Shown in pieces: positions 28,655-51,538 of a stretch of DNA of 64,000 nucleotides. Position numbers and translations under genes: made by a program. How positions within the stretch are numbered: the first letter of the stretch is position 1; each line of letters opens with the position of its first letter. The notes beneath the pieces are model-generated. The model did no database searches, was not told where the DNA came from, and worked only from the letters and a program-made list of their open reading frames with translations. The stretch covers positions 124,001 through 188,000 of the forward strand of contig NW_026853235.1 of NCBI RefSeq assembly GCF_026571515.1, read 5' to 3'. The stretch comes from Ruditapes philippinarum (lineage: Eukaryota).

Positions 28655-28849
28655 GTTTGCGACCAGCATGGATCCAGACCAGCCTGCGCCTCCATGCAGT
28701 CTGAATAGGATCCATGCTGTTCGCTATCTGTTTCTCTACGTGTAATAGACTTGGTAAGCGAACAGCATGTATCCTGATCAGACTGCGCGGTTCTGGATCC
28801 ATGCTGGTTGAAAACCCATTATGTTGGATGTGTCATGACGAAGCTCATT
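28655..28849. mobile_element. Palindromic MITE, left-truncated; same family as 30552-30748
   Basis: Shares TTTGCGACCAGCATGGATCCAGA...GGATCCATGCTGTTCGCT...GTCATGAC..GCTCA with the copy at 30552. Confidence 0.8.
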
Positions 28850-29644: not shown

Positions 29645-30551
29645 GTTCGTTACTGTAAAATACGTTATGCTCTATGTAATTTGGAGGGAATTTGTTTTAC
29701 TAAATAAACAAAGAGAATAATTTTTTTAGTATGTTCAGCAGGTAGCATATAATTACACGTTTCCAGCAACATGTATGTCAAAAGGTATATGCTTAAAAAA
29801 CACAATCAGGTCTTTTTAAGCCACCCCTTTTTAGGTTTGACCACCTTTCAATACACGCTTGCCATGTCCATTGACCGTATCTCGGAGTTTATTGTTTTTT
29901 TTTTAATTCCAGGTTTCCAAGAATGTGTCACTTGCAAGTTTTAAGAAATAAATATCCAGTTCAAAAGCATATGAATATAATCTCAAAGTCCAATAGACCT
30001 AATAAAAAAAGAGCAAAGCATTTGAAGATAAATCATTCATTGTTTTACTAAAATGCACACATAATGAATATCGTTTTTCAATCTAACATACTTATAAGAC
30101 AGAGAAATGATTAAATATGTTTCCCTCAATTAGAGACAATAAGATTAGTTGTTATTTTCCTGACATTTTTTCGTTTATTGATATCATACATGACTTCATT
30201 TGAGTGTACGCATTCTTTTTTATACCGTTTACTAATAAGACCCTGTTATACACGTAAAAAAACAACACCAACACTTAATAGATATACTAAGCAAGATTTC
30301 GTCCAGCAGTAAGCAGAATTTAAGAATTTTACATATTAACATATAAAACTCATATATTGATATGATATGTTAAAGCTATCATTAAGATCACATGATAGCT
30401 ATATATCTTAAAACAATTCACTTCGCTATTACCTATCATCTAATACTAGGTTCTCAAGCATTTAAAAGTTTTCTCAAGTAGTAAATATCACGGTTTCTTT
30501 TCTGCTCCATGCTTATCTTTCCACATTTTTATAACAAAATTTTAAGGTAAT

Positions 30552-30748
30552 AAATGAGCCGCGTCATGACAAAACCAACATAGTGGATTTGCGACCAGCA
30601 TGGATCCAGATCAGCCTGCACCTCAGCGCAGTCTGATCAGGATCCATGCTGTTCGCTATCAGTTTCTCTACTTGTAATAGGGTTTGTAAGCGAACAGCAT
30701 GGATCCTGCAGACGCACTATGATGGTTTTGTCATGACACGGCTCAAAT
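30552..30748. mobile_element. Palindromic MITE
   Basis: TIRs TGAGCCGCGTCATGACAAAACCA / TGGTTTTGTCATGACACGGCTCA. Absent from the paralogous block near 57670, which shows the empty site. Confidence 0.88.
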
Positions 30749-32910: not shown

Positions 32911-34156
32911 GTAAGTTTAATTGCAACATTTATTCTACTTCAAACAACAAATCAAAAAGATGACTCTTAAATGTCTTTTGTGATTAATGCTTCCGAGATA
33001 TCACTTTGTTTTCAGATTTTTATACTTCACAACCGCAGGTGTCAAGTGGGCTGTGTGGCAACTGTAAACAGTTGTCCCGTACTTCACTTCAGTGTTGTTA
33101 TATTTTTCTTGTCCTTCGGGATCATTGATGCCAGCACTAGTAAGTTTTGAGAATTGAGTACCGCTTCAGTCGGTGCTAGGCGGCGTGAGGCATGTTGCAC
33201 GTTTCAAGTATCCCTCGTGTCAAGCCGAGTCTGCAATTCTCCTGTAATATTGTTGTGATTAATGCTTCCGAGGGATCACTTTGTTTCCAGATGTATGTAT
33301 CATAACATTAATGATACAATTTACTAGGCACATGGTCATGAGATTTTAGGGTTATGTAGTTTGTTTAACATTATGAATACTACTTGATTTAAACATTTTA
33401 AAAAATGTTTAATGGCGATGTCTTTTAAATACATATATAATTACAGACGTATAGCATTGAGTTATTTGATATTCAGATACCATTTATTTGACCCCATATC
33501 GCTTTGTCGGAAGATACGATTCGTTGAAACGAAAACACACAACATAAAGAATACAAGCAACATAATAGTTAATATTTACAATCAGTAGCAGATGTCAATC
33601 ATGATATGGTTGTTTTTGAATAAATTGTAACTGTACGTTATGTTAAACATTATGTATCGTTTTATCAATGGTATCAACATTTGACAGAAAACATTAAGAT
33701 CAACAGTTTTAAATATTATATATATGCTGATAATTGTGTGTAATTCAAACACACAAAAGCTGTTCATTAAATTAAAAAAGCCATGTTTGATTGTGCTACA
33801 ACATTATATATATTGACTTTTTGTTGTTGTTTCAAAATTGTGTAGGACCAACACTCTTTATCATCTTTTTATCTTCATCTTAAAGGGACTCCACTGACTC
33901 CACTGAAGTTTAAAAGCCAGAAACATAAGTTTGATTTTCTTACATGAATGAGCTTGGGCAGTTTAAACAGAAATTTATACAAAAATAGTTACGAAATATA
34001 CTTTTTAGTTTGATATAAGTGTGAACAGCCTTTAAACACTTTCATTTTGGGTTATTTTTTTACGATTTGAATGAATATTCTGGAAAACGAAGTGCGCCAA
34101 CGAACTGAACTTTGCCACACAGATTAGTGGTGTAAACCTACATCAGATTGTACATT

Positions 34157-34490
34157 AGTAGTATAGTCGTTACTTTAGCCCCACGAGGCTGTGACGGCCG
34201 TGTTGACAATATTACATAATACGTCATTAATCTTAAAGGTATTACATTATTGCCCTTATTAAAGATTAAGGAGTATGCAGTGTCCTGACAGTTTTACAGA
34301 ATTCAATTGACAATATTACATCATGTATGTGACATGTCATATCAAAAATATTACGATTAGGTGTGGTTATACTGAACAGATTAAACATTTGGATGCATTA
34401 AGTAAAAGGTCGTTTATTTCCTTTTTACTTCCGTTTCCTGGTAATTCATATTTAAATGCTTAGGAAGAGCTAATAATTACAGTTCACTTT
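34157..34490 (+). repeat. Left terminal inverted repeat of the Polinton
   Basis: The first 30 bp differ from the reverse complement of the right end by 1 base. Looser similarity continues to about 34490, including TTTACTTCCGTTTCCTG...TATTTAAATG. Confidence 0.88.
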
Positions 34491-34528
34491 CAACCTGCTC
34501 AGTGTTTGTATCACACTTTGGTGAAATA

Positions 34529-35029
34529 ATGAACTCTAGTAACCGATGTAAATTGCATGTGTTTTGCGATGTTTATGTGACTATAAGTGACTACAAAAAT
34601 ATCACATACGTACATATGAGGTACTACGACGGAAAATACCCCACGAAAAAGGGTGTTGCTATGCCACTATTACGTTGGAAAACATTGGTGCAACTGATAC
34701 CGAAAATACAGGAAAATCGCAATGCCGATCAATCTGCTTTTGAACATTTAGGAGGTAATTGTTATATTAGCATTACGGATGATATACCTGGTATCGACAT
34801 AAGAGACTTCTGGATGCCCGAGGGAGAATTGAAAATTAAAGCAACAAAACGGGGAGTGCATTTTAGTCAAGAGGATTTTGATAAACTTGTTGATCTGATC
34901 CCACGCATTAACGGTTATATACCCGAGTTTGATGAAATCAAATTGTATGTCGAGAATGACGACCATCAAAACCAGCAGGGAGCCCTACGATGTAAAGAAT
35001 GTAATCCGAACGAATATCACATGTGGTGA
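34529..35029 (+). CDS. Tandem double PC4/Sub1-like (p15 coactivator, ssDNA-binding) domain protein
   Basis: Two PC4-like repeats: YVTISDYKNITYVHMRYYDGKYPTKKGVAMPLLRWKTL and YISITDDIPGIDIRDFWMPEGELKIKATKRGVHFSQEDFDKL. C-terminal H...CxxC. First ATG at 34529. Confidence 0.8.
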   Translation: MNSSNRCKLHVFCDVYVTISDYKNITYVHMRYYDGKYPTKKGVAMPLLRWKTLVQLIPKIQENRNADQSAFEHLGGNCYISITDDIPGIDIRDFWMPEGELKIKATKRGVHFSQEDFDKLVDLIPRINGYIPEFDEIKLYVENDDHQNQQGALRCKECNPNEYHMW

Positions 35030-35434
35030 ATACACAGAGACACTTTATATTAACATATCATAAGAACTTTGTAATATAAGTGATTATATTTTGTTTTATT
35101 GTTAAACGATAAATGTAAAAAATGAAATAAATATACGAAATGTCTATGTGTTGTTAGTGTTCAATAACGTGTGTCCATCATCATCATCACCTATAAGATC
35201 TGTAAATAGATATGAAATTAATAAATGATACACCATAAAAACAATTCACTTATGTATATATCATTATGTTACTAATAAATGAGATATTGTACAGTGGAAC
35301 CTCTATTAACGATTCTTTCATATATTAAGTATCTGAAACAATAAAACTACTTTAGAAATTGATGCTTTCTGACAGAAATAACTCTTTTTTAGGAAATATA
35401 TTTTAACTGTTGTACATGTGATTAGTTTACTTAC

Positions 35435-36390
35435 CTGTACAATAGGCCGACCTGTAGAATTGACACATATTCTGTATTTAGCAGTGTAGTCCAGGTCTTT
35501 GTAAATTGCATGAATATGATAATTGGCTATTGAGGCCGTCGCAAGCGTGACCGCATAAAAAATGTCACCATGGTCCTCGTTTTCATTTGCTGAACAAAAA
35601 ACCCCAGGAAATGTCCAAATTCATGCACAAATGCACCCAGACATTCCTCTAGGTACTTCATTGAATGTAAGTTGATGACGATTTCGCAGAAGTCTTCGTT
35701 TAGTTTCTCTGTCGAAGCATATTCTTCAGAATTATTTGAATCATTGACAAAAATGATTTTTATACACTTAAACTTTGTTTGGCACAAACCAAAATGATAC
35801 AAAAAATATTTTAGCAGTTTGTCTATGGAATAAACTATAAGAGGTATATTGAAATCCGACCAACTTGTATATAAGTCGTCCACTTCTGTTGCAGACACAT
35901 CTGCACAAAATGTCGTCACAACAGCATTTGTATCATATTCGACGTAAGAAAATTGTCCCCGACTTTCTAATATTTTTGTATTATTCTCTTCTTTGATGTG
36001 ATAATAAATTTTTAAGTCCTTTAATGTGTTATCACCTTCTCCCAGATTAGACAATTCGTCGACAGCCATTCCTATTGTCAGACGAATATCTGTATTGAAG
36101 TATGGCTCTATAAAAACAAACGAAAATATATATTAAAATTATGAATCAAATTAAAACGTTTACATGCGCTATTACCTCAAACACTTCAGTTTTTCAAACG
36201 ATATAACCAAAAGCACTTAAATAAATGAGTTAAAGAAAGTAAAGATTGATTTATCATGAAAACACAAATTATTCAATTAAACGGTATATAGAGAGCGGTT
36301 TTAAACAGTAAAAGTATTTACCAATGCGAGACGTATTACTGCTAGTGTAATATCTGTTTTCAGAATTTTCGACTTCACGGCTCTGACCTG
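35435..36390 (-). pseudogene. SprT-like zinc metalloprotease, spliced, frameshifted
   Basis: FVHEFGHFLG (HExxH). A shift in the T run at about 35595 restores ...NEDHGDIF, giving the third His ligand. The exon is bounded by an AG at about 36108 and GTAAGT at about 35435, with a phase-compatible 66-nt upstream exon at about 36322-36387. Confidence 0.6.
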
Positions 36391-36902
36391 AATGAAAATA
36401 AAACAGACCTGTAAAGTTTTCATTAATTTATTTAAAAACTGTATAAAGCACATTTCCTTACATTGAAAACAAGACGTATGCGGATACAATACATTTATAA
36501 ATACTAAATATTCAATTTCGAATTATTGTTATGTTTACACAATGACGAAAAACATTGAAGACGACAAACATTTTATAATATCCTCACGTGTAACTTTTAA
36601 AGTATTATATATACTTTAAAAGACGCATCACTAAACAAGTAACACAAGAAAAAAGCTCTTTTCTTAAAAATTGGATTGATAATAAAGAAATTATAAAAAT
36701 CATAATATTACAATACTATTCATATAAATAATTTGCATATTGTGTCTCTTATTTTAGACAATAATATCCTTTGCTTTAAAAAACAAAATACAATGCTACT
36801 TACCCATTGCAATCATGTTTTAAAATGTATTCTTCTGATTCGAGAAGGCGTTTGATAATTTTCGCTAATTCGGACTTTTCATTCTGTACTAATTTTCTAG
36901 AC

Positions 36903-37020
36903 GAACTTCCGTATATTATATCACTTCCGTATTCAATTTCGCCTATATATTAAGTTATAGATCTTGTTAAGGTATCACTTGTCAGCTACTAAGCCAGTGG
37001 ACACTGAGATTCTGGTAAGT
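36903..37020 (+). promoter_or_regulatory. Candidate promoter: paired ACTTCCG (ETS-like) sites, TATA-like tract, short leader, splice donor
   Basis: ACTTCCGTATATTATATCACTTCCGTATT...CTATATATAAG, then GTAAGT at about 37015. A near copy lies at 38186-38302. Confidence 0.45.
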
Positions 37021-37187
37021 TGATATTTTCTATTTATTTTAATTTATTTCGTTACTGTTCTGGAAATGTGTGTACTTCGTTTAAATGTTATTTATTTTTT
37101 ATTTATAAATTGCAGACGGATGCAAAGATTTTATAGCATATTAGGAAATTATAGTGTACTTAAACCTATCTGCAAGAGTCTCTTATT

Positions 37188-38060
37188 GTGTCGTTGACCG
37201 GTCAAAAATAATATAGAAGTGATAGGTTATTGTTATATTAGTAAAAGTTCGTGTGGCACCGCCTTCTGAGAGTCTGCGAGTGTCTCTGAATGTGTCGCAG
37301 ACCGGTCAAAAATAGTATAGAACTAATACATGTTATAATAGGAGTCAAACTTCGTATGGCACCGCCTCCTGATAGTCTGCGAGTGTCTCTAAATGTGTCG
37401 CAGACCGGTCAAAAATAGCATAGAACTAATATGTGTTATAATAGGACTAAAACTTCGTATGGCACCGCCTCCTGATAGTCTGTGAGTGTCTCTAAATGTG
37501 CCGCAGACCGGTTAAAATAGTATAAAACTGATAGGTCATTGTTACAGGTGTAAAACCTTGTGTGGCACCGCCTCCTGATAGTCTGCGAGTGTCTCTAAAT
37601 GTGTCGCAGGCCGGTCAAAATAGCATAGAACTGATAGGTCATTGTTATAGGAGTAAAACTTCGTGTGGCACCGCCTCCTGATAGTCTGCGAGTGTCTCTG
37701 AATGTGTTGCAGACCGGCCAAAATAGCATAAAACTGATAGGTCATTGTTATATTAGTAAAACTTCGTGTGGCACCGCCTCCTGATAGTCTGCGAGTGTCT
37801 CTAAATGTGTCGCAGACCGGTCAAAATAGCATAGAACTGATAGGTTATTGTTATATTAGTAAACGTTCGTGTGGCACCGCCTCCTGATAGTCTGCGAGTG
37901 TCTCTGAATGTGTCGCAAACCGGTCAAAAATAGCATAGAACTAATATGTGTTATAATAGGACTAAAACTTCGTATTGCACCGCCTCCTGATAGTCTGCGA
38001 GTGTCTATAAATGTGTCGCAGACCGGTCAAATATAGTCTAGAGCTGATAAGGGTTGTTAT
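37188..38060. repeat. Internal tandem array of the Polinton, 103-bp unit x about 8.5, with an interrupted palindrome in each full unit
   Basis: GACCGGTC or a close variant recurs at 37197, 37300, 37403, 37506, 37609, 37712, 37815, about 37919 and 38021. The unit consensus includes GTCTGCGA-N15-TCGCAGAC. Confidence 0.93.
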
Positions 38061-38185
38061 AAGAATAAAAATATTATTTTGACGTACCCTTTTCGAGTGC
38101 TTCCGGAAGTGTTGTAGACAGGCGAGAGTAGTTTGGATTGTACAACTTAAAAAGCCCCTTTGGCACTTCCTTGTTTTCAAAGGTT

Positions 38186-38302
38186 ACTTCCGTGTATTAT
38201 GTCACTTCCGTGTTAATTTTCTCGATATATATGTATCAAATTTAATTTTACTCTGCATTTTATCTGGACAGTGATGTGAAGATCATGAGACATCAGGTAA
38301 GA
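38186..38302 (+). promoter_or_regulatory. Candidate pPolB promoter and non-coding leader exon
   Basis: ACTTCCGTGTATTATGTCACTTCCGTG...GATATATATG, donor CAG|GTAAGA at about 38297, acceptor TTTCAG at about 38597, ATG at 38719. Confidence 0.45.
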
Positions 38303-38718
38303 TTTTAAACTTTAATGGTTATTTTTTTTATTCACTTAATTTTATAAACTTTATAACATGTTAAACTTTATATTTAAAGATACTACTGATATTTCGAAAA
38401 TGCACATATGATATAGCTTTTAAAGCTTAAAAATATGTGTTATTGCAATAAAAGCGGTGAAATGTTAAATGCTTACAGACCAGATGAAATGGTTTGAATC
38501 CTATAACTGATGTCAATGATGGAAACACTCTTCAGACACCCCCCCCCTTTTTTTTTTTGGAGCGTTTCTAATTTTGGTGTTCTTTTCTTTATTTCAGATA
38601 TAAAAATTCCAAGAGAGACAGTCAAGTTACAGAACTTAACTTAGCTACGATTCCGTGTGTCTGTCGTGAAGAATACTGAAGAATAAAAATTTCAGACTTC
38701 CTGATGTAGTTCATTCTG

Positions 38719-41700
38719 ATGAACAACGACATGGAAAGCATTTATAAAACATTTGAAGTTTTGATAAATTCTTTTACAAATGCTGATGAATTACATAACT
38801 TTGTGACAACTTTAGGACTACAGGATATTCCGTCAGCAAGATTTCGATTGTTCCAGTTGAGAAATCCCGAGTACGATGAGAACTTTGTAAACGAAGAGTT
38901 AAGTAGTATTTTTCAACATTTAGAAGGAACTGCTGAACATAACAACGTTGACTTGGAGTTGGCCCTTGAGTATGTAAAAGAGCAAGAAGGCTTTGAAAAA
39001 TTAGTTAAGTCACCATCATGTTTCGACAAAGAAACGAATGAAATGGCAATGGCATCTACTGAAACTGACAAGTGGGAACCCTCAGTACAAGTAGGGTCTG
39101 GGGAAGAACCGCAACCGGGTCCGTCGTATAGATCCAGTCCCCACCCTGCTCTTCAATATACAATTAGAAAAAAATCGGAAAAAACATATGCCAAATATGC
39201 GGCAGTGGATCGAACTTATCAGGTAAAATTAAACGCCCAGCATAAAGGACAAAAGTTACAAGATACACGACAAGGACTCTACCAGATGTTTGACGAAGTG
39301 TTGGACCACGCCCGGGGAAATTTGAAGGGAAACGATTTAGGAAGAGTTGTCTTACATCACGAATCACTTAACAATTCGATTATTGTCCCTCTACAATCCT
39401 GGGATCAGCTTAATGCTAACACAGTGATGGAGACAGTAGAGAAAGAACTGAACAGCAATGAAGCTTTAGCAATTGATGAAAGCTTTGATATTTCAGTTGG
39501 TTCCATTGATTTACCAAAAGGAAGTGGGAGTTCACGTCTCAGAATTACCAAACTTACAGGAAAGAACAATTCCCTCGTGTTAAAGAAATCCATTGTTACA
39601 ATCGAAAATAAAGACATGTTATGTATGTCTAGAGCAATTGCTGTTAGCTGGGCGAAACTGAAAATATGTAGTCCGGACGAATGGAAAGAGATAGCTAAAA
39701 ACAGACAAAAGAAGAGCAATTTACAACTTATTTTACAACACCGAAAAGTTCCAGACAGTTATTTGAAGAAACGTAGGGAGAAAAAAAGAGATGAACAACG
39801 ACAATTAGCTGTGGCTATTAGCCAGTTGGCTGGAATAGCCTTAGACAGACCAGCGAGTTTAAATGATGTAATGGCTTTTGAAGAAGTACTGAGGGTGCGT
39901 GTAATGGTGATCAGTGCAAGGCTTGGCAACAAGTTTATTACAAGTCCAAGTACCGACGAACGACCATGCATTTACATTTATTTAATGAACGACAACCATT
40001 TTCACGCCATTACATCAATTACAGGTTTCTTTTGCGCCAACTACTTTTGCAACCGCTGCCTCAAACATTACGACCATAAAGAAAGACATGGATGTAAAAC
40101 GCATTGTATAATATGCAAAAGTGATGGATGCGTAATAACAGAAACATCCGTAGTCTGCACTAACTGTAATATGAGCTGTAGATCTCCAGATTGCTATAAA
40201 CGACATTTAAAGACACCCGTACACAACAAAGGAAAATATAAAGGAAAGCCCAGAGGTCCGTCCCAGTGCGAAAAATGGTGGAAATGTCCAGTCTGTTATA
40301 AAGTTGTGAACAGAGAAAAAAAGACAAAAAGAAGAACATCAGTGTGGAGAGTACTATTGTTCTTCATGTCAAAAATTTGTTTTTGAAGATCATTTATGTT
40401 ATATAAGAGCTATGCCAGCTAAAGAAGATTTCAATCCAAGATTTATATTTTTTTATTTTGAATGTACGCAAGACCAAATTTTAGAATGTCAGGAGGGATA
40501 AATCGTTACCAAGAAACCAGATTGTAGAGACTGTCAACCAGAACAGAAGTGTAAAGCCTGCTCCAAATATCGCCACTGTAAAACATCGTCGTGCGGAAAA
40601 GCCATACATCGACCCAATTTCCTCGTAGCTCACTCAGTATGTCCAGATTGTATTGATAAGCCTTTAACGCCAAAATCCGTCTGTAATAAATGTGGAACAC
40701 GTTGCGAAGAATGTGACAGCACTAACCTATTCGATGAAGAAGATACAGAGCCATGCCATGAAAAGTGCGGGTTCAGGGAAGTTATATTTGAGGGTGAAGA
40801 CACTGCTGAAAAGTTTGGCGAGTGGTTATTTTCTGATCAGCACCGACATTTTAAAGCCGTGGCTCACAATATGAAAGGTTATGATGGCTATTTCCTTCTT
40901 GAATACCTTATCAACCAATCAGTACGACCAGACAAAATTATCTATAACGGTTCCAAAATTATGTACATGTGTGTAGAGAAAGGGTTACATATTAAAGTTT
41001 TAGACAGTCTAAATTTTCTACCCATGAAATTATCGGCATTACCCAAAACCTTTGGATTACAAGAATTAAAGAAAAGCTGGTTTCCTCATTTCTTCAACAC
41101 AAGGGAAAATCAACAGTATGTAGGACCCTACCCGAAACCCAAATTTTACGGTGTTGATTTCATGTCCACAAATGAAAGAAAAGAATTTTTGCAGTGGCAC
41201 CTGACTAAAGAGGGTGAGCTGTTTGAATTAAGAAAACAAATACTTGAATACTGTAGAAGTGATGTGGATATTTTGAGACAAGCCTGTCTTAAGTTTAGAC
41301 ACTTATTAATGACAGCTACCGGTAAGCAAGAAGATATAATCAGTGACAAAGGAAAGTTGAAAACGGTTTGGGTGGGTGCTATAGATCCTTTTGACTATGT
41401 AACTATAGCATCCGTATGCATGAACATGTACAGAACTAAATTTTTAGAAGAAAAGTGGAAGGTCAAGTTAGACAAAGAGAGTAAATGGACTCCCGCTCAA
41501 GTCACTGACGGGAAATTATACGTTTATCACCAGAACAAATGGATCGGAGAGGACGACCTAAAAGACAATAAAATTGATCATAAAGAATTTGTTTCAACCA
41601 AAATAGCAAAAATCCCTTCCAGCGGTTACAGAGATCAATACAGTAAAGTTTCCATACAGTGCTTAGAATGGATAGCCAGCCATGAAGAAATCTATATCCA

Positions 41701-43391
41701 ACACGCTTTAAATGTCGGCGAAAAAGGTCTAACCGGAACACGTTATAAATTAGATGGTTACTGCGTAGAGACCAATACAGCCAATGAATTCCATGGGTGT
41801 GTTTTTCATGGGTGTCCTACTTGCTTTCCAGAAGATCGGGAGGGGACCTTTCACCCCCAAACAAAACAGTCCATGAAGGAACTCTATGCTTTCACGATGA
41901 AAAAAGAAACATTTCATAGAATGCCAGGGAATAAAGTATGTCTGTATTTGGGAACATTAATTTCACGAACAGCTAGAACAAAACACCGAACTGAAAATAT
42001 TTATAGACAATTTAGATTTGACGGACAGATTAGATCCACGGAAAAGTTTCTTTGGATGTAGAACCAATGCCAGTCAACTTTACTACAATGTCCAAGAGGA
42101 TGAAACATATAATACGTTGACTTCACAAGCTTATACCCCTGGGTTAACAAGTATTGTGAATATCCTGTTGGTCATCCGAAAATCATTGTTAAAGATTTTC
42201 AAAATATAAGTCAGTACTTTGGCATTGCAAAAGTTAAGATTTTACCACCAACAGACCTTTATCATCCTGTTTTACCGTACAGATCCAACGGAAAACTGAA
42301 ATTTCCACTCTGTAAGATCTGCGCAGATACCGAAAATCAAGATGACTGCACATGTTCGGACGAAGACAGAACGTTAACTGGCACCTGGTGTACACCTGAA
42401 TTACAGACAGCAGTAAGGCTAGGTTACAAAATTATGAAAATGTACGAAGTATACCACTGGGAAGAAACCACCAAATATGATTCCTCCACAAGAGAAGGGG
42501 GTCTGTTCGCTAAATACATTAACACCTTTCTTAAGTTTAAGCAAGAGGCAAGCGGTCCACCTGATTGGATTAAGAACGAAGAAGATTTATCTAAATACAT
42601 ACAGCAATATTTTGAAAAAGAAGGTGTTTCATTGAAGGTGGAAGAGATCATAAAGAACCCTGGATTAAGAGCATTGGCAAAATTATGCCTAAATAGCTTT
42701 TGGGGCAAGTTTGGACAGCAGCTAAACATGCGACAGACTAACTTTTTTCACAAAACAGAAGTCAGTGAGTTTTTTCAACTGTTTTCCGATACGATGAAAC
42801 AACCGCAAAACTTTCACATTCTCTCAAACGAAATTCTTCAAATGGAATGGACTTACAAAAACGATTGTCAGCCCGAAGATAATAAAACGAACATATACCT
42901 GGCCACCTTTACCACATGCTGGGCTAGACTCAAACTCTACAGCATGTTGGAAGTGTTAAACAGAAGAGTCCTGTATTACGATACAGACAGTGTCATATAT
43001 GTGAGTAGAAAAGGACAATATGATCCACCTTTAGGAGATTACTTGGGTGAATTAACAGACGAATTAAATAGTGACGTATACATTGTAGAGTTTGTGTCAG
43101 GAGGGCCAAAAAACTATGCTTATAAAACCAATAAAAAAAGAATTGTGTAAAGTGAGAGGGTTCACGCTTAATTTCACAAATAGTCAATTAATCAATTTTC
43201 AAAGTGTTAAAACCATTGTGACAAATCCAAAATGTTGTAAAACTATCGTAGTGACAAACCCGAGTAAAATTTGCAGAGACAAACGAAAAAGAAAACTGGT
43301 TAATAGGGAAGAGCAAAAAACGTATCAAATGGTGTATACTAAACGTAGAATATTAGACAATTATGATACTATACCATACGGATATCGATAG
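38719..43391 (+). pseudogene. polB: Protein-primed family B DNA polymerase (pPolB) with Cys-rich N-terminal region and VSR-like nuclease insert; several frameshifts and stops
   Basis: Exonuclease motifs AHNMKGYDGYF, DSLNFLPMKL, FPHFFN, YCRSDVDIL. Insert IQHALNVGE..YKLDGY..EFHGCVFHGC. Polymerase motifs YVDFTSLYP (about 42112-42140), KLCLNSFWGKFG, YYDTDSVIY, KNYAY, KVRGFTLN. Confidence 0.95.
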
Positions 43392-43727
43392 AAAGTAATT
43401 GAATGTGATAAATATGTCAATACTGTTACTTGTTTTTTGTTTGCACAGTTTATGTTATGTACTTGTTGTTTTGTTTTTTGCAGCAGTTGCTCCTAAATTT
43501 GTACGTTTGCATATAAATTCCTCGCTGGTACGTTTCAGTTTTTGTCACTAGCCTTACATGTTTTGCCGGTAATATTATTTATTTTGTCATAACTGTTAAC
43601 ATCTGTGTTACGGATGATTTAAGAAATACAATGTCACTCTCGTATTTATAAATGTTTAACTGAAGTATGTAAGAACAGGTCATTTTTGACTCATTTTGTT
43701 ACGTCTGTTAATAAGAACGTAAAATAA

Positions 43728-44006
43728 ATGAATACTCCAGAAACACATGAATCCGGAAGGGAATCTTTTATTTATTTTCCCAAATCCAATGAAGAAAGTC
43801 GATCAAGCGAGGAAAGGTGGCATTTGTTAGGTACTTGTGTACCCAAAGCCGAAATCGTTTATTTTTGCCAAATGATCATTGTGTACATCATTATCATTAC
43901 CTCGATCGTAAACCTGTCGCTCAGAAACGGCTCCCCAGAACTTTGGATTAGTCTTCTCAGCAGCTGTATCGGTTACGTCTTGCCGAGTCCTAAGATCAAG
44001 AAATAA
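43728..44006 (+). CDS. Small two-TM membrane protein of the Polinton
   Basis: Hydrophobic segments IVYFCQMIIVYIIIITSIVNL and LWISLLSSCIGYVLPSP. Its stop overlaps the ATPase start (TAATG). Confidence 0.7.
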   Translation: MNTPETHESGRESFIYFPKSNEESRSSEERWHLLGTCVPKAEIVYFCQMIIVYIIIITSIVNLSLRNGSPELWISLLSSCIGYVLPSPKIKK

Positions 44007-44914
44007 TGAAGTCTGCATTACCGTTTAAGCCTTGTTCCAGTATATGTATTAGTGGTCAAACCGGAAGTGGAAAAACGCAATGGGTGTATAGGTTTTTGAA
44101 AAACTTGAAGGATATGTATTCTGAAGATCCTCCTTCACACATATTATACTGTTACGGTATACATCAAGACTTATTTGACACGATGGAACAATTCATTCCA
44201 CATTTTGACAGTAAACAGGGTCTACCAACAGCTGAGCAACTGGATGACTTTACCCGGGACAAGAGACATAAGCTGATCATTGTCGATGATCTTATGCACG
44301 AAGTGATGAAACATAAAGATATGGAATTGTTATTTACTCAAGGCTGTCATCATAAGAGGGTTTCTGTCATACTAATTACACAAAACTTGTATCCAGGTGG
44401 TAAACACGCCAGAACTATCGCCTTAAATACCTGGTACATTGTACTAATGAAAAATTTAAGAGATGTCTCGCAGGTAGGAACATTAGGGAGACAAATGTAC
44501 CCTGGAAAAACGAAAGGTTTCATGAAAGCCTATGAAGACGCATTAGAAACGAAGCACGGTTCTTTTTTGGTAGATATGAGCCCACACGCTGAGGAGAGGT
44601 ATCGTCTGAGGACCAATATATTTCCGGGAGAGGATTCCAGTAAGAAGAAGGAAGTTAAAACTTGTAAGAGTAACCATGGTGGAACTCATCAGACAGCAAC
44701 GTCATTTTTTACAACTATTGGTGCAAACATTCCCAGCGCAAAGGAAAGTATTGTTAAGCACGATTACCAGACAACAACTGAAGTCTCTTGCTCAAATTGC
44801 ATACAACGTTCTTCGATTTACTATTGTTATGTATGCAACATATTACATGTATATAGTTTGTATCTGACCAGTTGGTATTTCCAATATTATCATTGTTCTA
44901 TTTTTAGAACATAA
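44006..44914 (+). CDS. A32/FtsK-like genome packaging ATPase; the tail beyond about 44650 is probably spurious read-through
   Basis: Walker A GQTGSGKT, Walker B LIIVDDL, HHKRVSVILITQNLY, RTIALN, RLRTNIFP. Confidence 0.93.
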   Translation: MKSALPFKPCSSICISGQTGSGKTQWVYRFLKNLKDMYSEDPPSHILYCYGIHQDLFDTMEQFIPHFDSKQGLPTAEQLDDFTRDKRHKLIIVDDLMHEVMKHKDMELLFTQGCHHKRVSVILITQNLYPGGKHARTIALNTWYIVLMKNLRDVSQVGTLGRQMYPGKTKGFMKAYEDALETKHGSFLVDMSPHAEERYRLRTNIFPGEDSSKKKEVKTCKSNHGGTHQTATSFFTTIGANIPSAKESIVKHDYQTTTEVSCSNCIQRSSIYYCYVCNILHVYSLYLTSWYFQYYHCSIFRT

Positions 44915-45642
44915 ACTACATGTATGTACTAGAACTTTAATAACTGTTGTAGAAAACTCATGCATTATATTTAGATAGAAATTTCTGGAATGAAATTTAT
45001 TATTGGTGAAGTTGCTAGATTATGATTACTGTAGTAAATGGAAGACTATTCTAGAAACTTCTTAGTTAATATATATAAGGAGACATTTTTCATTACTCTT
45101 ATCTTTAAGTCATCAGTTACCTTTTAAGTCATCAATATATTTGGAGTATTTTACAACTTGGATATTAAGTGATTTATTGGAGCTTGGATTATTTTAAAAT
45201 AGTTAAAATTATTCTTGTGGATTTTATTGTGGGAATTTATTCTAAAGTGTTCTTGGATTTTACTTGGATTTAAATGTGCTATTCAAAAAAGGATCATTCC
45301 AGGATCAGACTAGACATTTGAGATTTCATTTTTATTTGGACTTCAGGTATTTGTAAACATAATTTGTTATTTTATTTTTCTTTAATAATTTTTCTGTAAT
45401 AAATTTGTTATTGTTACAAGTTTGTTGCTGGCTTTTCTTTCTTGTTACGCCTGGCTCGTAACACTATAAAACTGACGTCATCCGAAAAAGTCCGTCTTAA
45501 ACGACAGAGACGTTTTATTTACCTGCTGGGAAACAAGAAGATTGGATTTCAAAAGAAAAAGGAAGCTATCAGAGACAATCAAAGAACTACATATACTTTG
45601 GTTAAAATTACCTCAGTGTATTTAGAACCCCTATTGCAATAA
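44676..45642 (+). pseudogene. Basic core-like Polinton protein interrupted by a solo LTR
   Basis: Removing 44825-45467 joins MVELIRQQRHFLQLL...IAYNVLRFTI to KLTSSEKVRLKRQRRFIYLLGNKK... in frame. Confidence 0.8.
44825..45463. mobile_element. Solo LTR (639 bp); 4-bp TSD suggests Gypsy type
   Basis: TGTTAT...GTAACA termini, CTAT duplicated at 44821-44824 and 45464-45467, internal TATA-like tract and AATAAA. Confidence 0.85.
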
Positions 45643-45863
45643 TGGACAAGTACATTTTGATCCCCTATGACAAATACCAACGCCTATTTCAGCCTAAGTA
45701 CAATGGGTCTGGAGAAGTAAAGGATGATGACAAGACCGAAATTATTCCTAAAATCTTTTTACCACCACCTGGAGAACGTGACAAGAAAATGAAAAGAAAG
45801 CATGTAAAGAAACCAAAAATGACTTATACGGACAGTGTTAAATCTATAAACTGGTTGTATTAA
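45642..45863 (+). CDS. Small Polinton protein of unknown function (73 aa)
   Basis: Start overlaps the upstream stop (TAATG). MDKYILIPYDKYQRL...PPPG...INWLY, followed by AATAAA. Confidence 0.6.
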   Translation: MDKYILIPYDKYQRLFQPKYNGSGEVKDDDKTEIIPKIFLPPPGERDKKMKRKHVKKPKMTYTDSVKSINWLY

Positions 45864-45935
45864 GAAACAACAACGAAGTTCTTTTGTAGTTATCTCTTTT
45901 ATTACTGTATACAAAATAAACGAATACAAATTTTA

Positions 45936-46358
45936 TTATTTGTTTTTATTTACAATGTTGTTAACGTACTGATCATTCAGTGCCCGGTTATACACATTAA
46001 AAGGTTGTACAATGTCCTTCATTTTTATATTCGCATATCTTGTCATGACGTAATACACGCAATAAAGTCCGCAGGTATCTGATTTAGAGTCTTGAATCGG
46101 ATCACATATCATCCAGTACTTGTTTGTTAATACGGTTTCAAACCCCACCTTGTAGTCACTAGGCAGTTTACTGAGAGAATCAAAGAATTCGTAAGGTCCT
46201 CTCCTTGGAAAGTAAAAGGTGACCCAATGTTTTCCGGGTCCATCGCTCGTATCCGTATTAGCAATTACAAATTGTCCCTTTTTAGCGCGTAATTGGTCAG
46301 CCGCACATACTGTTACTGGGTATCCTACGAGTAAACGTTCTAGTTCTAAATTATTCAT
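45936..46358 (-). CDS. Adenain-like cysteine protease (virion maturation)
   Basis: NTDTSDGPGKHWV (His), EFFDS (Asp), Q...SDTCGLYC (Gln, Cys). Confidence 0.92.
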   Translation of the reverse strand: MNNLELERLLVGYPVTVCAADQLRAKKGQFVIANTDTSDGPGKHWVTFYFPRRGPYEFFDSLSKLPSDYKVGFETVLTNKYWMICDPIQDSKSDTCGLYCVYYVMTRYANIKMKDIVQPFNVYNRALNDQYVNNIVNKNK

Positions 46359-47609
46359 TTCACGTACACGGCTTTAGCTTTATCGATATTGAGTACCTCG
46401 GGGAAAGTGGCGTACATAATCAAGGTGACACTCTCTGGTAAAGCCTCAGTGAACTTAAGTTCTAGACGGCAATGTCCCTTCCTTTTTGTATTGAATGAAT
46501 AGTAAGGGTCTATATCAAGAGCGTACAAGCAGTATCCATTCTTGTAATTTTCTTTGGAAATGTTGAGATCGTTTCTGTAGAGAGCTAATGTTCTGTAACA
46601 GTCCACGTAGTGATTGGCCGTATAATTTGGTTGCATCGGCTGACAAGGTAAAGAATGTCCATCGACGTAGAGTCCTACAAAACTGCAGTTTGTAATGTTT
46701 AAAGTTGAATGGGTTCTGTGTGTAATCACCATTAAACGCCGCGCTAGAGACTAGACCTACTATCAGTTTACTTGGTACTAAACCTTGGAATATATCATCT
46801 GCGCTGTAACTGAACTGGCCAGAGGCAATAGCTGTGGTTTTGATCTCTGTGCGTAAGTAAGTGTATATGGCTGGTGTATCTTGAATGAGCTTCTCACGCG
46901 CTATTATTACGCTACTAGTGAGTCGCTGAATGCAGAGTCTGAAATAAGCATCCACTATTTTCACTCGGTAATCTGGACTGATAGCGTCAGTGATGATTCT
47001 AAATGCATCTCGACTAGGATGGAGTTTTATACCGACAGAGACTACGTTGATGAGTAGTTTTGACTGTTGAAACAAATCAATATGTAATGGTCCTTCCATA
47101 TCCACAATCTTACTACCTTTAGTAAGCACGTATCTCATAAATAGTCCACTATTACTGCCCGTTTTACCATCATTGGTACCAACGTCACCCGTATCTTTAA
47201 AGAAGAGTTGACTGGTCAACAAGTTCACCTGCATATTTTCGTTGGACTGTAAAATCGTGTCTATGTAAGCTTTGTAGGGATAATTGATTCCTGTGTGTGA
47301 TAAAGGCGTTTGCTGCAGAGACACATCGACCTGACTGAATATAGTGTGTAAAGGTAGATTGATTGGCCCCACCACCTCGTCTGGGTTTATTGCACTGCCA
47401 TCGCCTTTGACAATTTGAATTTTTAGGTTTAGCACGCTCCTTTTCAGATCCATATAAGCCGAAGACTGGCCCGGTATATTGAATTCGAGAGCGGACGCAT
47501 TTGTCACTTGATTTACTGGCCGGTATGTGATCCATTCTCTCGATTGCAATGACGGGTCTGCAGGGGGTGAAACGAACAAGGACAACTCTTCTTGGTGATA
47601 ATCTTCCAT
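46355..47609 (-). pseudogene. Major capsid protein (double jelly-roll), one frameshift near 46690
   Basis: EELSLF...YRPV...LEFNIPG..AYMDL...LHTIFSQVDV...YPYKAYI...GPLHIDLF...NPFNFKHY, then in the second frame ISKENYKNGYCLYALD...RLELKFTEALPESVTLIMYA. Confidence 0.9.
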
Positions 47610-47690
47610 GTTCTTTAGAACTGAAATTCGGGACCGACAAAGTTAGGTCTCCTTTGCTTAGATGGTTTGCAGGTGAGCACTGTGGTATTC

Positions 47691-47990
47691 TTACGCTTTT
47701 TTTGGTCCTATCTTACTTTGGCCTTCTTGTTCAGCCTTAATACGTCTGACCTCAGACACGGCAATTTCTGTCGCCTGTGCAACGGGTGATACCAGTTTTA
47801 ATGGCGGTGCCTGCTTCATTTCGGTCAGTTTTCTAAGATGATTACCGCTACCGACGATGTAACGGCCTCTGTGATCGGGTCTTACATAACCCTCACTCAT
47901 ATCCTTGAAATGTTGATACCATTTCTCTGGGTCGGGAACATATGGTACCCATTTCATTTGTTTATAATCGTATACTTCTATGGAGCCCAT
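47691..47990 (-). CDS. Small Polinton protein of unknown function (99 aa)
   Basis: Intact ORF between mCP and MCP: WVPYVPDPEKWYQHF...IVGSG...VSPVAQA, with a basic tail. Confidence 0.65.
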   Translation of the reverse strand: MGSIEVYDYKQMKWVPYVPDPEKWYQHFKDMSEGYVRPDHRGRYIVGSGNHLRKLTEMKQAPPLKLVSPVAQATEIAVSEVRRIKAEQEGQSKIGPKKA

Positions 47991-48409
47991 ATTTTCTTAA
48001 AATGTAAAACGCAGTGAAGATCGTTCGATTTGAATTCAACTGGGTATAAATCTTCGTCTCTCAAATACAAATTCAGCGTGTTGAAATGATTCGCTGCCAC
48101 TGGTACGTATATCGGATGCGTGTATTCTACAGCTTGAAGTTTTTTGTATCTGGTGCCCACTTCGATATTTCTAAGTATGGATATTTGCGTGTTTCTGACG
48201 TAAGTTTGCTCCACCAAATCGCAGCATAAATACAGTCTTTTACTTTGAGGTGTAAAATCGCAGGTGAGAGAAATTTCTGTTAAGGCACAGGTCCAACGTC
48301 CTTCCAACGTATACGACTTGGGAAACTGAATATAAAAGTCTGATGGATTGTTGTTCTTACGTATGTTCTGAGAATATGCACTGTTAAGATAAAGATAAAA
48401 GTCGGACAT
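47978..48409 (-). CDS. Minor capsid protein (penton, single jelly-roll)
   Basis: MSDFYLYLNS...NNPSDF..FPKSYTLEGRWTCALTEI...LYLCCDLVE...ILRNI...YVPV...LRDE...CVLHFK. ATG at 48409. Confidence 0.85.
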   Translation of the reverse strand: MSDFYLYLNSAYSQNIRKNNNPSDFYIQFPKSYTLEGRWTCALTEISLTCDFTPQSKRLYLCCDLVEQTYVRNTQISILRNIEVGTRYKKLQAVEYTHPIYVPVAANHFNTLNLYLRDEDLYPVEFKSNDLHCVLHFKKIWAP

Positions 48410-48449
48410 GTTTGTTTTGTTTTTTATATTTATGCGAGTCTTTGCTTTC

Positions 48450-48797
48450 TTACGCTTCTCTGGTGGATCTGACTTCGTCCAGGATAGTATCAAAGAGGTA
48501 TGGAGGTCTTAACAACACGGTTACCAGAGTGTGATGACGTCTTATCAACGATTTCTTTCTAGTCTGTGACACGTGTCTGGAAGCCAAGGACCGTAGCAAA
48601 AGTCGTCTTCTTTCAATTAATTGAACGTCTCTTCTCAAGGGATTAATGGTTCCATTCACCAATCTCTTGGCCACTTGAGCTATAGCCTTCATTTGACTAA
48701 CCGTCATATTGGTGATCATATTTTTTCTGGCAGTTATAGTGGCATCCTTTAAGTGGAGAAGATAATTGAGTTTACGGTACACCTGAGACTGGTTCAT
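48450..48797 (-). CDS. Basic core-like Polinton protein; apparent paralog of 44676-45642
   Basis: Shared pattern L..L.......RK.ll...T..Q.K..AQ.A......TI......L.R.R.....L......Q.KK..IR; Arg/Lys-rich. Confidence 0.7.
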   Translation of the reverse strand: MNQSQVYRKLNYLLHLKDATITARKNMITNMTVSQMKAIAQVAKRLVNGTINPLRRDVQLIERRRLLLRSLASRHVSQTRKKSLIRRHHTLVTVLLRPPYLFDTILDEVRSTREA

Positions 48798-49344
48798 GGT
48801 TGATTTCTCTTAACATCAACTCCTTCTTACGCGTGTACTGTTCCAGTTCAACGAGTACAGGATAGACCACGTCATCGATCTGTGAGAGAAATTTAATTCC
48901 CGTTATAACCACCTTACCACTGTGGAAACAACAAAAGTTCATGTTATCCCTCTTAAGGTTAAGAGCTGGAAAGAGGTCCGGTTCATACATCACATGTCTT
49001 TCCGCTGCTAACTGTTTTAAATCTAGCGATGAACTTAAAGTATGACAGCAAGATACGGTTAAACACTTGATGCTTGTTAACTTGACTTGTAAGCCAAGTT
49101 TTTGAAGTTTTCTGGCGTATCGTCGTAAACGTAATCGCCCTTCCTTAACGCTGGCTGCTTTTCCATTACAGTTGAAACTGCCATTAGAAAACACTAAACA
49201 GTTTCCACCGATGGTTTTGTGTTGCCAAATAAGTCCGGGAAATTTTCTTGGCTCGTACCTCGCATTTGAAATGCGGTAACATAAATGTCGCAAGTTGATA
49301 GGACAGAATTATTTGGCACTGGTTACAACGTTTGTGATGATCAT
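48772..49344 (-). pseudogene. Divergent minimal TATA-binding protein (TBP) homolog; one premature TAA at 49309-49311
   Basis: MIITNVVTSAK*FCPINL...ARYEPRKFPGLIW...CLVFSNG...RRYARKLQKLGL...LDLKQLA...MYEPDLFPAL...CFHSGKVVITG. Both TBP core repeats are present. Confidence 0.92.
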
Positions 49345-49421
49345 AACTGGTTAATAGCTAACCTTTAAGTGAAAGTAAACAGTCAATTTATTACCTATAA
49401 ACTGAGGTAAAAATCACGTGA

Positions 49422-50530
49422 CTAGGAGTACTGTGTTACTTCTGTTTCCGGGATCCAGCTGTCGTATTTTTAGGCCAATGCAACCACCTGACCATTACCT
49501 CACGCTGATTGTTTCGAGTCCTTTTCTTCAGTATTTTTTCAATATGGTATGCTGTCGTCTCATCCACACTAACCGCTTGTAGTTCATGCTCATAAAATGT
49601 ACCGTCTATCAATTCACCGTCCCAGTTCACCAGTCTGTAGATTGGTAGATCCTGTCTTCTATAACGCGTTTTAATTTTAAAGATTTCACAAGTCCATTTC
49701 TAAGAATATTCCCGATCAAACACGTTTCGCACGTGTGACACACGTACTGTTTGACCTATTTTAAAGTTGTATCTTATTCTTCTCTGCTTCAGCTTTATTT
49801 CCTTTGGTTCTCAGTAAGTACTGCTGCAGCCGGCTTTTTCCTTCAGTCTCTACACTAATGCTTGCAGGATGGGTCCCCAAACTACGATTTAATGTATGAT
49901 TATAACTATGTATCATATTTTGAAAAACTTCTATATAGAGCTGTGTTTTGTTTTTCAGCATATATCTGAAAATCTTATGTTTGATTGTCTTAATAAATCT
50001 CTCGGCATAATTAGCTTTGGTTTCGGTGTTCAGGGCATACAAATGATGTACATGTTGACCTTGTAAATATCTTTTTACGTCCTTGCTTCTAAACTCCATT
50101 CCTCTGTCTGTGCGGATGGTATTTGGTTTCCGTGAGTTTGAAAGTATCTGTGCTAAAGCTAAAACTACCTGACTTCCCTTTTTAGTTTTGATGGGTTGGG
50201 CCTGAGCATAACGGGAAAAATATCTATGGCCACAAAGATGTCTTTATAACCGTCATTTTGTTTTGACACGTCACTCATATCCATTAAGTCCAAATCCCAC
50301 TGACTATCAACCCCGTTCACAATCACTCTAGAACGTTTGAAACGACGCCTGGCCCCTCTTGTCAAAGAATAGGATTCTTGATCTTGTAACCATTTTCGTA
50401 TTTTATGTCTCCCGATGTTATATATATTCTCCTTCTTCACGTATTAATATAATTTCTCAGGACCACCGAAACTAGCTGAATGTTTCGGGTCAAAGTACAA
50501 AGATGACAAATAATGCCTCCAGTTTGTCAT
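49422..50530 (-). pseudogene. Retroviral-like (DDE) integrase with C-terminal chromodomain; multiple lesions
   Basis: YFDPKHSASFGG, QWDLDLMDM, IDIF, RTDRGMEF, AERFIKTIK, YNHT, GTFYEHELQ; chromodomain YHIEKILKKR...VRWLHWP..YDSWIP. Confidence 0.93.
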
Positions 50531-50630
50531 GTTTTTATCTTTGCACAATTTTAACTAATTCTTACACAACTGAAATATCTTATATGCATTACAAAGTCAT
50601 ATTCTAATATTTACAACAAAGAAAATTAAA

Positions 50631-50789
50631 TTATAAAACAGTTGCAGTCCTATTTTCATCCATATTAATTCCTAAAACTTCAAATAATCTTTCAACAACT
50701 TCGATGGCTTCTTGCTTTAACTGTCTATATCTTAACCACCATTCAAAGTCTCTAAACAGTGACAAAATAACAAATGCAAAACCAATCAT
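50631..50789 (-). CDS. Possible 52-aa ORF with hydrophobic N-terminus
   Basis: MIGFAFVILSLFRDFEWWLRYRQLKQEAIEVVERLFEVLGINMDENRTATVL; starts 2 nt after the BIR gene stop. Confidence 0.35.
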   Translation of the reverse strand: MIGFAFVILSLFRDFEWWLRYRQLKQEAIEVVERLFEVLGINMDENRTATVL

Positions 50790-50791
50790 GA

Positions 50792-51205
50792 TTAATAGCG
50801 ATTAAAATGTTTTCCTATAAATAAATTAGATCCAGTAGAACTGTTTGATTCCGGTGCAGTTCCAAAACCGAAGGTATTGTTACAAATTCCATGTAATGTG
50901 ACAATTCTATCACCACTCTTGTACCCAGTCATTCTCAGATAGATACACTCTGGAGACCAATTTGCGTGTTCTTCCCAATGTTCGTCTTTCGGTTCCTAGG
51001 ACATCAAGTTTATGCCACAGGCAAAACACATAACTTTATCGACATTACCTGTATAATAAAATCCCGCTTTGGTTAACGCTTCTTTACCCTGTTTTATTTG
51101 TTTCGACCAGTGTTCAAACGTTACCAGCCGATCATCATAAAACTTCATGTCTAGCTTGAAAAACATTGATGATCTCACTGAATCGCTTTTGGTAAAAAAA
51201 TTCAT
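50792..51205 (-). pseudogene. Single-BIR inhibitor-of-apoptosis-like protein; conserved Trp codon replaced by TAG at 50996-50998
   Basis: RLVTFEHW...LTKAGFYYTGNVDKVMCFACGINLMS*EPKDEHWEEHANWSPEC, i.e. the CX2C...HX6C BIR signature. Confidence 0.92.
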
Positions 51206-51289
51206 ATCAGTAAATCAATGTTCTTAAAACGTGTCAAATCTATAAGTTTTATACCTCATCAAAGCACGAACAGACACCAAGTAATTTGA

Positions 51290-51538
51290 AAATGTTACTG
51301 TAGCTATTAACTTTCCTCAAACATTTAAATACGAATGATCAGGAAACGGAAGTAAAAGAAAGTAAACAACCCTTTACCTAACATGTCAAACGTTTAACCT
51401 GTATTGTATACACATACGTAATCGTAATATTATCCGCTAGGTCTTGTCTCATTAATGACGTAATAGTGTCGATCAAATTATGCAATCTGTCAATATGGCC
51501 GCCACAGGTCGTGGGGCGAAAGTAACGACTATACTACT
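51290..51538 (-). repeat. Right terminal inverted repeat of the Polinton
   Basis: Reverse complement aligns to 34157-34490; ends ACTACT followed by the TSD. Confidence 0.88.

Follow-up and report, generated by a model that had tools for sequence, protein, structure and literature searches.

TBP mimics are known from beta- and gammaherpesviruses, among them BcRF1 of EBV and UL87 of HCMV. ORF24 of KSHV is described in the available text of PMC12529657 as a large multi-domain protein that has five other viral activators beside it, binds Pol II directly and reads TATTWAA. TBP folds are also encoded by Nucleocytoviricota and mirusviruses (matches in BFVD; a core gene of mirusviruses in the available part of PMC10132985), which, unlike Polintons, encode their own RNA polymerase. 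Altered specificity has been engineered in TBPm3 (I194F, V203T, L205V), which reads TGTA according to the accessible portion of PMC1636458; in the same source, an A-to-G change at position 2 abolishes binding by wild-type TBP, and positions 3 and 6 tolerate a G. In agreement with the original prediction that TBP is not part of the canonical Polinton core, no TBP stands among the Polinton genes in the accessible text of Krupovic 2014 (PMC4028283). The available text of Starrett 2021 (PMC8502044) has a 'TBP' label in a figure legend on MELD viruses and elements akin to them, without any text on TBP there, and the extracted text of its Fig. S2 bivalve maps has no such label. Beyond these legends, we found neither a Polinton TBP nor the word YGTAAGAA described in the freely accessible literature searched. 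Animal Polinton virions are still largely unobserved, as stated in the accessible part of PMC8097293.

The window, by which we mean the whole 64,000-nucleotide stretch of DNA analysed here, holds a Polinton with a TBP gene of its own. With the Polintons, Mavericks and adintoviruses of Krupovic 2014 (PMC4028283) and Starrett 2021 (PMC8502044), as far as their accessible text goes, it shares pPolB, RVE integrase, ATPase, protease, capsid genes, TIRs, a 6-bp TSD and a length of 17 kb. The TBP shares with cellular TBP, TRF2/TBPL1 and archaeal TBP (PF00352) the two-repeat saddle (TM 0.80), the four Phe positions, N69, T215, the TFIIB stirrup and the basic helix, but lacks an N-terminal extension and introns, is only about 30% identical and falls in a separate clade. 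Its BFVD matches reach at most 23% identity, below cellular TBP (29%). Likeness to KSHV ORF24 (PMC12529657, available text) lies in a hydrophobic-to-Asn trend on the DNA face, a non-TATA word that would be late, and the prospective use of host Pol II; in contrast to ORF24, the Polinton protein is a bare core of 172-176 aa that keeps the TFIIB stirrup, is carried by a 14-17 kb element without RNA polymerase and goes with the word YGTAAGAA, and the likeness between the two is known at the level of the fold. The combination that marks herpesvirus vTBPs (an N-terminal Pol II-binding domain, a C-terminal DNA-binding domain, partner activators and a TATT word) was not found. If the model below holds, the Polinton TBP would by analogy work like a herpesvirus late TBP mimic without being a member of that group. 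TBPm3 resembles it in that the three positions altered there are also replaced in the family (63 of 63 members) and that the partner word has G at position 2; it differs from TBPm3 in being natural, in mostly using other residues, in the extra changes at V122, T124, N159 and V161, and in that its specificity is predicted. New here is a YGTAAGAA word tied to TBP-bearing Polintons. The earlier proposal of altered TATA specificity and a late-gene switch thereby gains a candidate promoter word found only in TBP-bearing elements.

The element and its genes

The element and its boundaries are as follows.

34157..51538, no strand assigned: Polinton/Maverick element, 17,382 bp; pPolB, MCP, integrase and TBP all broken
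34151..34156, + strand: target-site duplication TACATT, 6 bp, second copy at 51539-51544
34157..34493, + strand: left terminal inverted repeat, partner at 51286-51538, 76-86% alike

The TBP ORF had been placed in a TIR/TSD-bounded element, and these bounds were recovered: the element starts with AGTAGT and finishes with ACTACT between two TACATT copies, one on either flank. AGTAGT ends and 6-bp duplications were also present in the three sister elements checked. RNA reads that stem from other copies of the host repeat around the element join the flanks with one TACATT, and these joints therefore represent the empty site. Both the AG...CT-ended TIRs with a 6-bp TSD and the gene set (pPolB, RVE integrase, A32-like ATPase, adenain-like protease, double-jelly-roll MCP) are those of a Polinton. 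The family is likely from bivalve genomes, and the window's copy is a dead fossil of the TBP/word system. Its genes are listed here.

34529..35029, + strand: PC4-like protein with a pair of PC4 domains (a family of ssDNA-binding proteins and Pol II cofactors), Pfam PF02229 E 2e-13
38719..43388, + strand: protein-primed DNA polymerase B in four pieces, Pfam PF03175; an intact relative of 1555 aa is in metagenome locus L033
43728..44006, + strand: orf92, a small conserved protein containing a hydrophobic stretch; the start of the ATPase overlaps its stop
44006..44914, + strand: A32-like packaging ATPase, Pfam PF04665 E 1e-4, slightly below the Pfam cut-off; homology up to about codon 210
44676..45639, + strand: orf107, interrupted by a host repeat at about 44865-45400
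45936..46358, - strand: adenain-like cysteine protease, Pfam PF00770 E 3e-4, slightly below the Pfam cut-off
46355..47609, - strand: double-jelly-roll major capsid protein, frameshifted; named from a low-confidence model of sister copy L055
47978..48409, - strand: putative minor capsid (penton) protein of 143 aa, so called for its position and size only
48450..48797, - strand: orf115, small basic conserved protein that fits no known family
48772..49344, - strand: viral TBP, two core repeats without N-terminal extension; stop at codon 12
49439..50530, - strand: RVE integrase with chromodomain, in three pieces; the intact L033 relative has rve (E 1e-14) and Chromo

Sequence searches with the MCP gave no match. 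The protein of sister copy L055 is 70% identical to the window's, and although its structure model is of low confidence (pLDDT 54), the top nine structural matches of that model are all viral double-jelly-roll capsid or scaffold proteins, the best at Z 9.7 and rmsd 7.6 over 307 aligned residues. Family searches with the 143-aa ORF two genes upstream of the MCP, the putative minor capsid protein, were without match. The two-domain PC4 gene accompanies TBP: it lies directly upstream in 8 of 13 metagenome loci (L031, L032, L034, L037-L039, L041, L042) and near the integrase in five sister copies, and stands at the opposite end in the window copy. The element's PC4 may be an ssDNA-binding protein, a Pol II cofactor or both.

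Several further features were seen along the element. An ORF of 180 aa at 35527-36069 (- strand) with an HEFGH (HEXXH) motif and a weak Metallopep match (E 0.03) is absent from the sister elements examined and is possible zinc-peptidase cargo. Near the integrase end, 50999-51214 (- strand) is a remnant of a gene that we take to be BIR/IAP-like from its motif. Genes of this kind occur in TBP-bearing and TBP-less Polintons alike (L049, L052, L057, L060, L067, L072), and an IAP label stands on the Mytilus and Pinctada maps in the available text of Starrett 2021 (PMC8502044). The host repeat within orf107 (44865-45400) is the only stretch inside the element with substantial RNA reads, which come from other copies of the repeat. 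Compared with the main sister family, the window copy looks mosaic at 48772-50530: synonymous sites of TBP are saturated, and dS is 0.45-0.78 for orf115 and the minor capsid gene; protein identity to the sisters is 60-74% for integrase and TBP and 86-91% for the capsid N-terminus. These sequence comparisons suggest an exchange of the integrase-TBP block between lineages. Outside the element, the window has on its + strand a frameshifted BEL/Pao LTR retrotransposon at 787-5811 (DUF1759 gag, protease, Peptidase_A17, integrase) and, at 19157-20014, an intronless TRIM-like ORF of 285 aa that contains a B-box zinc finger (E 9e-8). An ORF of 383 aa at 11918-13069 (- strand) gave no match in Pfam. 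Short palindromic or inverted repeats of MITE-like character are clustered at 28652-28852 and 30548-30745, on either side of about 1.7 kb.

TBP as a part of a Polinton lineage

The intronless ORF of about 190 codons with one premature stop was confirmed at 190 codons, the stop being codon 12 (49309-49311). With that stop entered as X, both TBP core repeats were found in a Pfam search (PF00352, E 2.9e-28, 98 bits against a cut-off of 22.9, in two stretches), and the best sequence matches in PDB are human TBP cores (E 1.4e-21). Structure prediction agreed with the HMM on a TBP fold (AlphaFold2 from a 63-row alignment, pLDDT 91, pTM 0.79), and the top Foldseek match of the model is human TBP (1c9b_B, TM 0.80, rmsd 2.1 A, 29% identity). 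The four intercalating Phe (F35, F52, F125, F140), the acidic TFIIB stirrup YEPDLF and the basic helix RRYARKLQKLG are all present in the window copy, as had been read from it. Other parts of the original prediction were too narrow or too general. The repeat-2 Asn is indeed Thr and the repeat-1 Thr is Asn, but the DNA face is altered at more than these two positions. The overlap with the next ORF exists in the window copy only, and sister genes end about 19 nt before the next ATG; since the window frame continues 15 codons beyond the stop of its sisters, whose natural length is 172-176 aa, the overlap is peculiar to this decayed copy.

Linkage of TBP to Polinton genes was proposed from this one copy and holds across the lineage. 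There are 44 TBP matches in the same genome, and an integrase match lies within 1.5 kb in 30 of the 30 loci examined (26 distinct), most of which also share orf115 and the capsid module, arranged alike; the TBP frame of 174-175 aa is open in 10 copies besides the window's. In metagenome loci, Polinton genes stand beside TBP in 13 of 13 cases, the integrase in 10 of 13, and a Tegillarca gene model fuses TBP with an rve integrase. TBP was found in none of ten more distant Polinton loci, and two decayed copies of the lineage itself had no TBP match. dN/dS is not near 1: values are 0.07-0.33 in the 20 listed pairs with dS below 1.5, similar to those of the neighbouring capsid-module genes, and between lineages dS is saturated at a dN of 0.20-0.47. 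TBP is thus a fixed, selected part of a Polinton lineage.

A search with the single sequence gave 104 protein relatives and a profile search 305 at E<=1e-5, of which the best 120 were listed; the nearest named homologues are from Mercenaria, Mytilus, Pinctada, Tegillarca and Crassostrea. Trees were built from 127 of 165 sequences, the 38 with fewer than 145 matched positions being excluded, and from a subset of 69 of the 127, and were rooted on two three-repeat, probably archaeal, proteins. In the 127-sequence tree, 91 compact TBPs with a median length of 173 aa fall into one clade (FastTree support 0.973), and in the 69-sequence tree, where supports are SH-aLRT/aBayes, all 39 chosen members stand together (SH-aLRT 98), apart from host TBP and TRF2. 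The viral TBP is therefore not nested in host TBP, to which identity is about 31-35% (30% to host TRF2), and host TBP and host TRF2 are separate, intron-containing genes. TRF2/TBPL1 has lost the intercalating Phe. The viral TBP keeps them, and TRF2 forms a clade of its own (support 100), so the viral protein is not of that class. The Polinton context was checked in the sub-branch of the 91-member clade that holds the window copy and is presumed for the other branches. We infer that TBP was captured by the lineage and that the capture is old.

ESM Atlas matches were to TBP clusters only. Scans of IMG/VR with queries P0003, A1, P0265 and P0289 found no family member, their one weak match (L063) being a phage-like contig without a listed TBP ORF. 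An IMG/VR match to P0369 (L085) was set aside as its contig carries an ordinary cellular-type TBP, and a single 13-residue match in a GTDB scan was rejected as chance.

The candidate promoter word and the DNA face of the protein

The word C/TGTAAGAA (YGTAAGAA) before capsid, packaging and integrase genes is exclusive to TBP-bearing elements among the Polintons examined. Its sites in the window are the following.

50559..50566, - strand: TGTAAGAA, 36 nt before the integrase ATG (50530)
48824..48831, - strand: CGTAAGAA, 34 nt before the orf115 ATG, inside the 3' end of the TBP gene
48447..48454, - strand: CGTAAGAA, 45 nt upstream of the ATG of the putative minor capsid gene
47688..47695, - strand: CGTAAGAA, 86 nt before the major capsid ATG
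43668..43675, + strand: TGTAAGAA, 60 nt upstream of orf92, which leads the orf92-ATPase pair
44663..44670, + strand: TGTAAGAG, 13 nt before orf107; a further GTAAGA core at 44640

YGTAAGAA stands before all 42 starts of orf92, orf107, orf115 and the minor and major capsid genes in TBP-bearing elements and before none of 27 in TBP-less Polintons of the same genome, for a five-gene list chosen after the upstream DNA had been viewed. An unbiased scan of the 100 nt upstream of every ORF of at least 80 aa, independent of that choice, returned CGTAAGA as the top 7-mer; in six TBP-bearing elements, 23 of 61 ORFs had YGTAAGA ahead of them, on the sense strand only (0 antisense), against 0 of 82 ORFs in seven TBP-less Polintons. 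As the elements are related, such word counts are not independent trials, and with about six TBP-bearing lineages against about five TBP-less families the link between TBP and word is one lineage-level contrast. Of the integrase starts, 11 of 15 in TBP-bearing elements and 0 of 9 in TBP-less ones are preceded by the word. It preceded 1 of 34 TBP, PC4 and polB starts, and none of 27 starts of ATPase, protease, orf97 and orf86; all four of these genes start on or overlap the end of the preceding gene and so would be second cistrons. When four TBP-bearing elements are pooled, CGTAAGA heads the list of enriched 7-mers (30 occurrences against 5.8 expected), and its count of 11 in the decayed window copy alone is inside the shuffle range (mean 6, maximum 15). 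Some words are still retained in the two decayed lineage copies that have no TBP match. A de novo search for a common word in TBP-less Polintons gave nothing comparable.

The copy of the word farthest from the ATG is at least 33 nt away in 52 of 53 starts, mostly at 33-60 nt, as would suit a site placed upstream in the manner of TATA. In many units there is a second copy just 7-19 nt ahead of the ATG, a distance too short for it to act as a TATA at that ATG. Of 55 sites, 22 are in non-coding DNA, 21 inside an ORF and 12 on a stop codon; that the word is kept in all these contexts alike indicates that the constraint acts on DNA. No clear sharp initiator was seen about 30 nt downstream of the word, with pyrimidine-A at 23, 21 and 21 of 80 sites at +30, +32 and +34 versus 19 at +18, counts that are confounded by ATG context. 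The polB, PC4 and TBP genes often have ordinary signals: a strict TATA-box pattern occurs before polB in 4 of 6 cases, PC4 in 4 of 10 and TBP in 8 of 18, and where a TATA box and a TCAKT initiator occur together before these genes, 9 of 12 pairs are spaced +28 to +34. In the window copy, a clean TATA is missing upstream of the TBP gene. One TBP-less Polinton family (C1829, C2745; L079-L082) has a canonical TATAAAA before internal genes, including its orf107 homologue and integrase, in places that YGTAAGAA occupies in the TBP-bearing family. An E-box/CRE-like GTCACGTGA lies immediately upstream of the TBP gene's TATA region (49345-49460 in the window; also in most sister copies and several of the metagenome loci L031-L043) and is a candidate host-factor site for control of the presumed switch gene.

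Compared with TATAAAAG, YGTAAGAA has G at positions 2 and 6. Residues are numbered here as in yeast TBP, from alignments with PDB sequences. The residues of a canonical TATA reader (N159, T124, V122, V161, I194, V203, L205) are replaced in all 63 family members. At the TBPm3 positions the changes are I194 to N/M, V203 to N/H/T and L205 to C/S/T/I, among others; these are mostly residues other than those of TBPm3, with V203T itself in 8 of 63. Elsewhere on the DNA face, V122 is N/Q in 60 members, T124 N/Q in 61, N159 T in 63 and V161 S/T in 63; V122 is the residue that we take to face word position 6. Over the larger clade, N159 is T/S/A/C in 89 of 91 members and N in 36 of 36 sequences outside it, and V161 is never V within it. 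N69, F99 and F116 are invariant in the 63 members, F190 and T215 are each kept in 62, and the four intercalating Phe are present in 63, 63, 62 and 43, the fourth being His in 18. In the TFIIB stirrup (E186/E188/L189), E or D occupies both acidic positions and L or I the third in 63 of 63, and the Y139 helix is kept. Among the arginines on the DNA backbone, R105 is Q in 57 of 63 and R98 is variable. The DNA face has thus been remodelled and then held constant, with the protein-contact faces retained.

Proposed function of the word and competing explanations

The viral TBP probably binds YGTAAGAA instead of a TATA box and probably recruits host Pol II to the capsid, packaging and integrase units, a reading drawn from sequence that we hold with reasonable but incomplete confidence. 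The restriction of the word to TBP-bearing elements makes TBP a likely activator of those genes, acting through a private signal in their promoters. In an early phase, host TBP would transcribe polB, PC4 and the viral TBP from ordinary TATA and initiator promoters. In a late phase, the viral TBP would bind YGTAAGAA, whose G at position 2 should make it a poor site for host TBP, and bend the DNA with its kept phenylalanines; by means of the TFIIB stirrup and the basic helix on the TFIIA side it would then assemble a pre-initiation complex, placed about 30 nt ahead of short leaders. With a little more confidence than doubt, we extend this to a broad clade of animal Polintons that would have evolved an orthogonal TBP-promoter pair, in which a bare 175-aa TBP reads YGTAAGAA and runs a late programme on host Pol II, and branches with different DNA-face residues read different words. 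Three RNA runs (X22-X24) had zero reads on the window TBP and almost none on any element gene, so the elements are silent in those samples; in two RNA runs, 4 and 9 reads fell over 5.2 kb of a sister copy. Runs X20 and X21, labelled RNA-seq, were not used: they are unstranded, cover non-coding DNA evenly and have GATC at loose ends, and thus look like proximity-ligation DNA.

The word could alternatively be an initiator-type start read by another machine (the polymerase of a co-infecting large DNA virus, another element or a host factor), with TBP having another role and merely being co-inherited. GTAAG contains TAAG, which is needed for initiation by the baculovirus polymerase in the accessible text of PMC9786725; virophages sharing helper promoters offer a parallel, second copies 7-19 nt before ATGs would suit a start site, and the missing initiator at +30 points the same way. 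We nevertheless regard this as unlikely, given that the word is strictly YGTAAGAA, 8 bp long like a TBP site, rather than DTAAG; that one copy keeps the distance of at least 33 nt in 52 of 53 starts; that all examined TBP-less Polintons of the same host, equally free to use a helper, are without it; and that the altered TBP residues fall where the word departs from TATA. It is also quite improbable that the viral TBP has no DNA word of its own and acts as a decoy or host-shutoff factor, titrating TFIIA/TFIIB/TFIIIB or NC2/Mot1, or as a self-regulator on the element's ordinary TATA promoters. The kept stirrup and basic helix would serve such a role, and so would the changed backbone arginines (R105 to Q in 57 of 63, R98 variable) and the His at the fourth Phe in 18 of 63, but a decoy needs no invariant remodelled DNA face (N69, F99, F116 and N159T are invariant) and leaves the co-occurring word unexplained.

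GTAAG is also the core of a splice donor. An RNA-processing signal unrelated to TBP, be it a 5' splice donor/U1-binding site or a stop/reinitiation context, would agree with the strand-specificity of the word and with the use of its TAA as an ORF stop in 12 of 55 sites. This explanation is very improbable: judged against the general donor consensus, the C/T that stands ahead of GT in 55 of 58 sites and the A at +6 do not look like a donor; splicing from a donor right before the ATG would take the start away; at 43 of 55 sites there is no stop; and TBP-less Polintons go without the word. That the window copy is intronless and has a stop might recall a host TBP retrocopy inserted in a single element and decaying neutrally, a notion to which we give practically no weight. 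The protein is about 31% identical to host TBP and 30% to TRF2 in a clade of its own, it occurs at the same position in many copies and other genomes, and its dN/dS is far below 1; linkage in own-genome and metagenome loci, dN/dS and the separate clade together rule this reading out.

If the viral TBP does read YGTAAGAA, TBP and its private word would directly answer how elements without an RNA polymerase time capsid and integrase expression, and active elements would be recognisable by transcripts starting about 30 nt after the word. The pair would then have converged, in minimal form, on the late-gene TBP mimic of herpesviruses; no smaller switch for viral late transcription would be known, and engineered TBPm3 would have a counterpart in nature. 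With such a natural TBP of altered specificity, the structural rules behind TATA recognition could be put to the test, or an orthogonal promoter system could be set up; the branches of the clade would be a natural library of TBP specificity codes, and the endogenous elements would have a staged, virus-like life cycle. In the genomes of oysters and clams, multi-copy genes annotated as 'TATA-box-binding protein 2-like' or as 'TBP-like 1' are likely to be Polinton genes, not host paralogues. Finally, the fungal assembly of Piedraia hortae (P0401) holds a divergent TBP of 220 aa outside both the Polinton clade and ordinary fungal-type TBPs, which could be another element-borne TBP.
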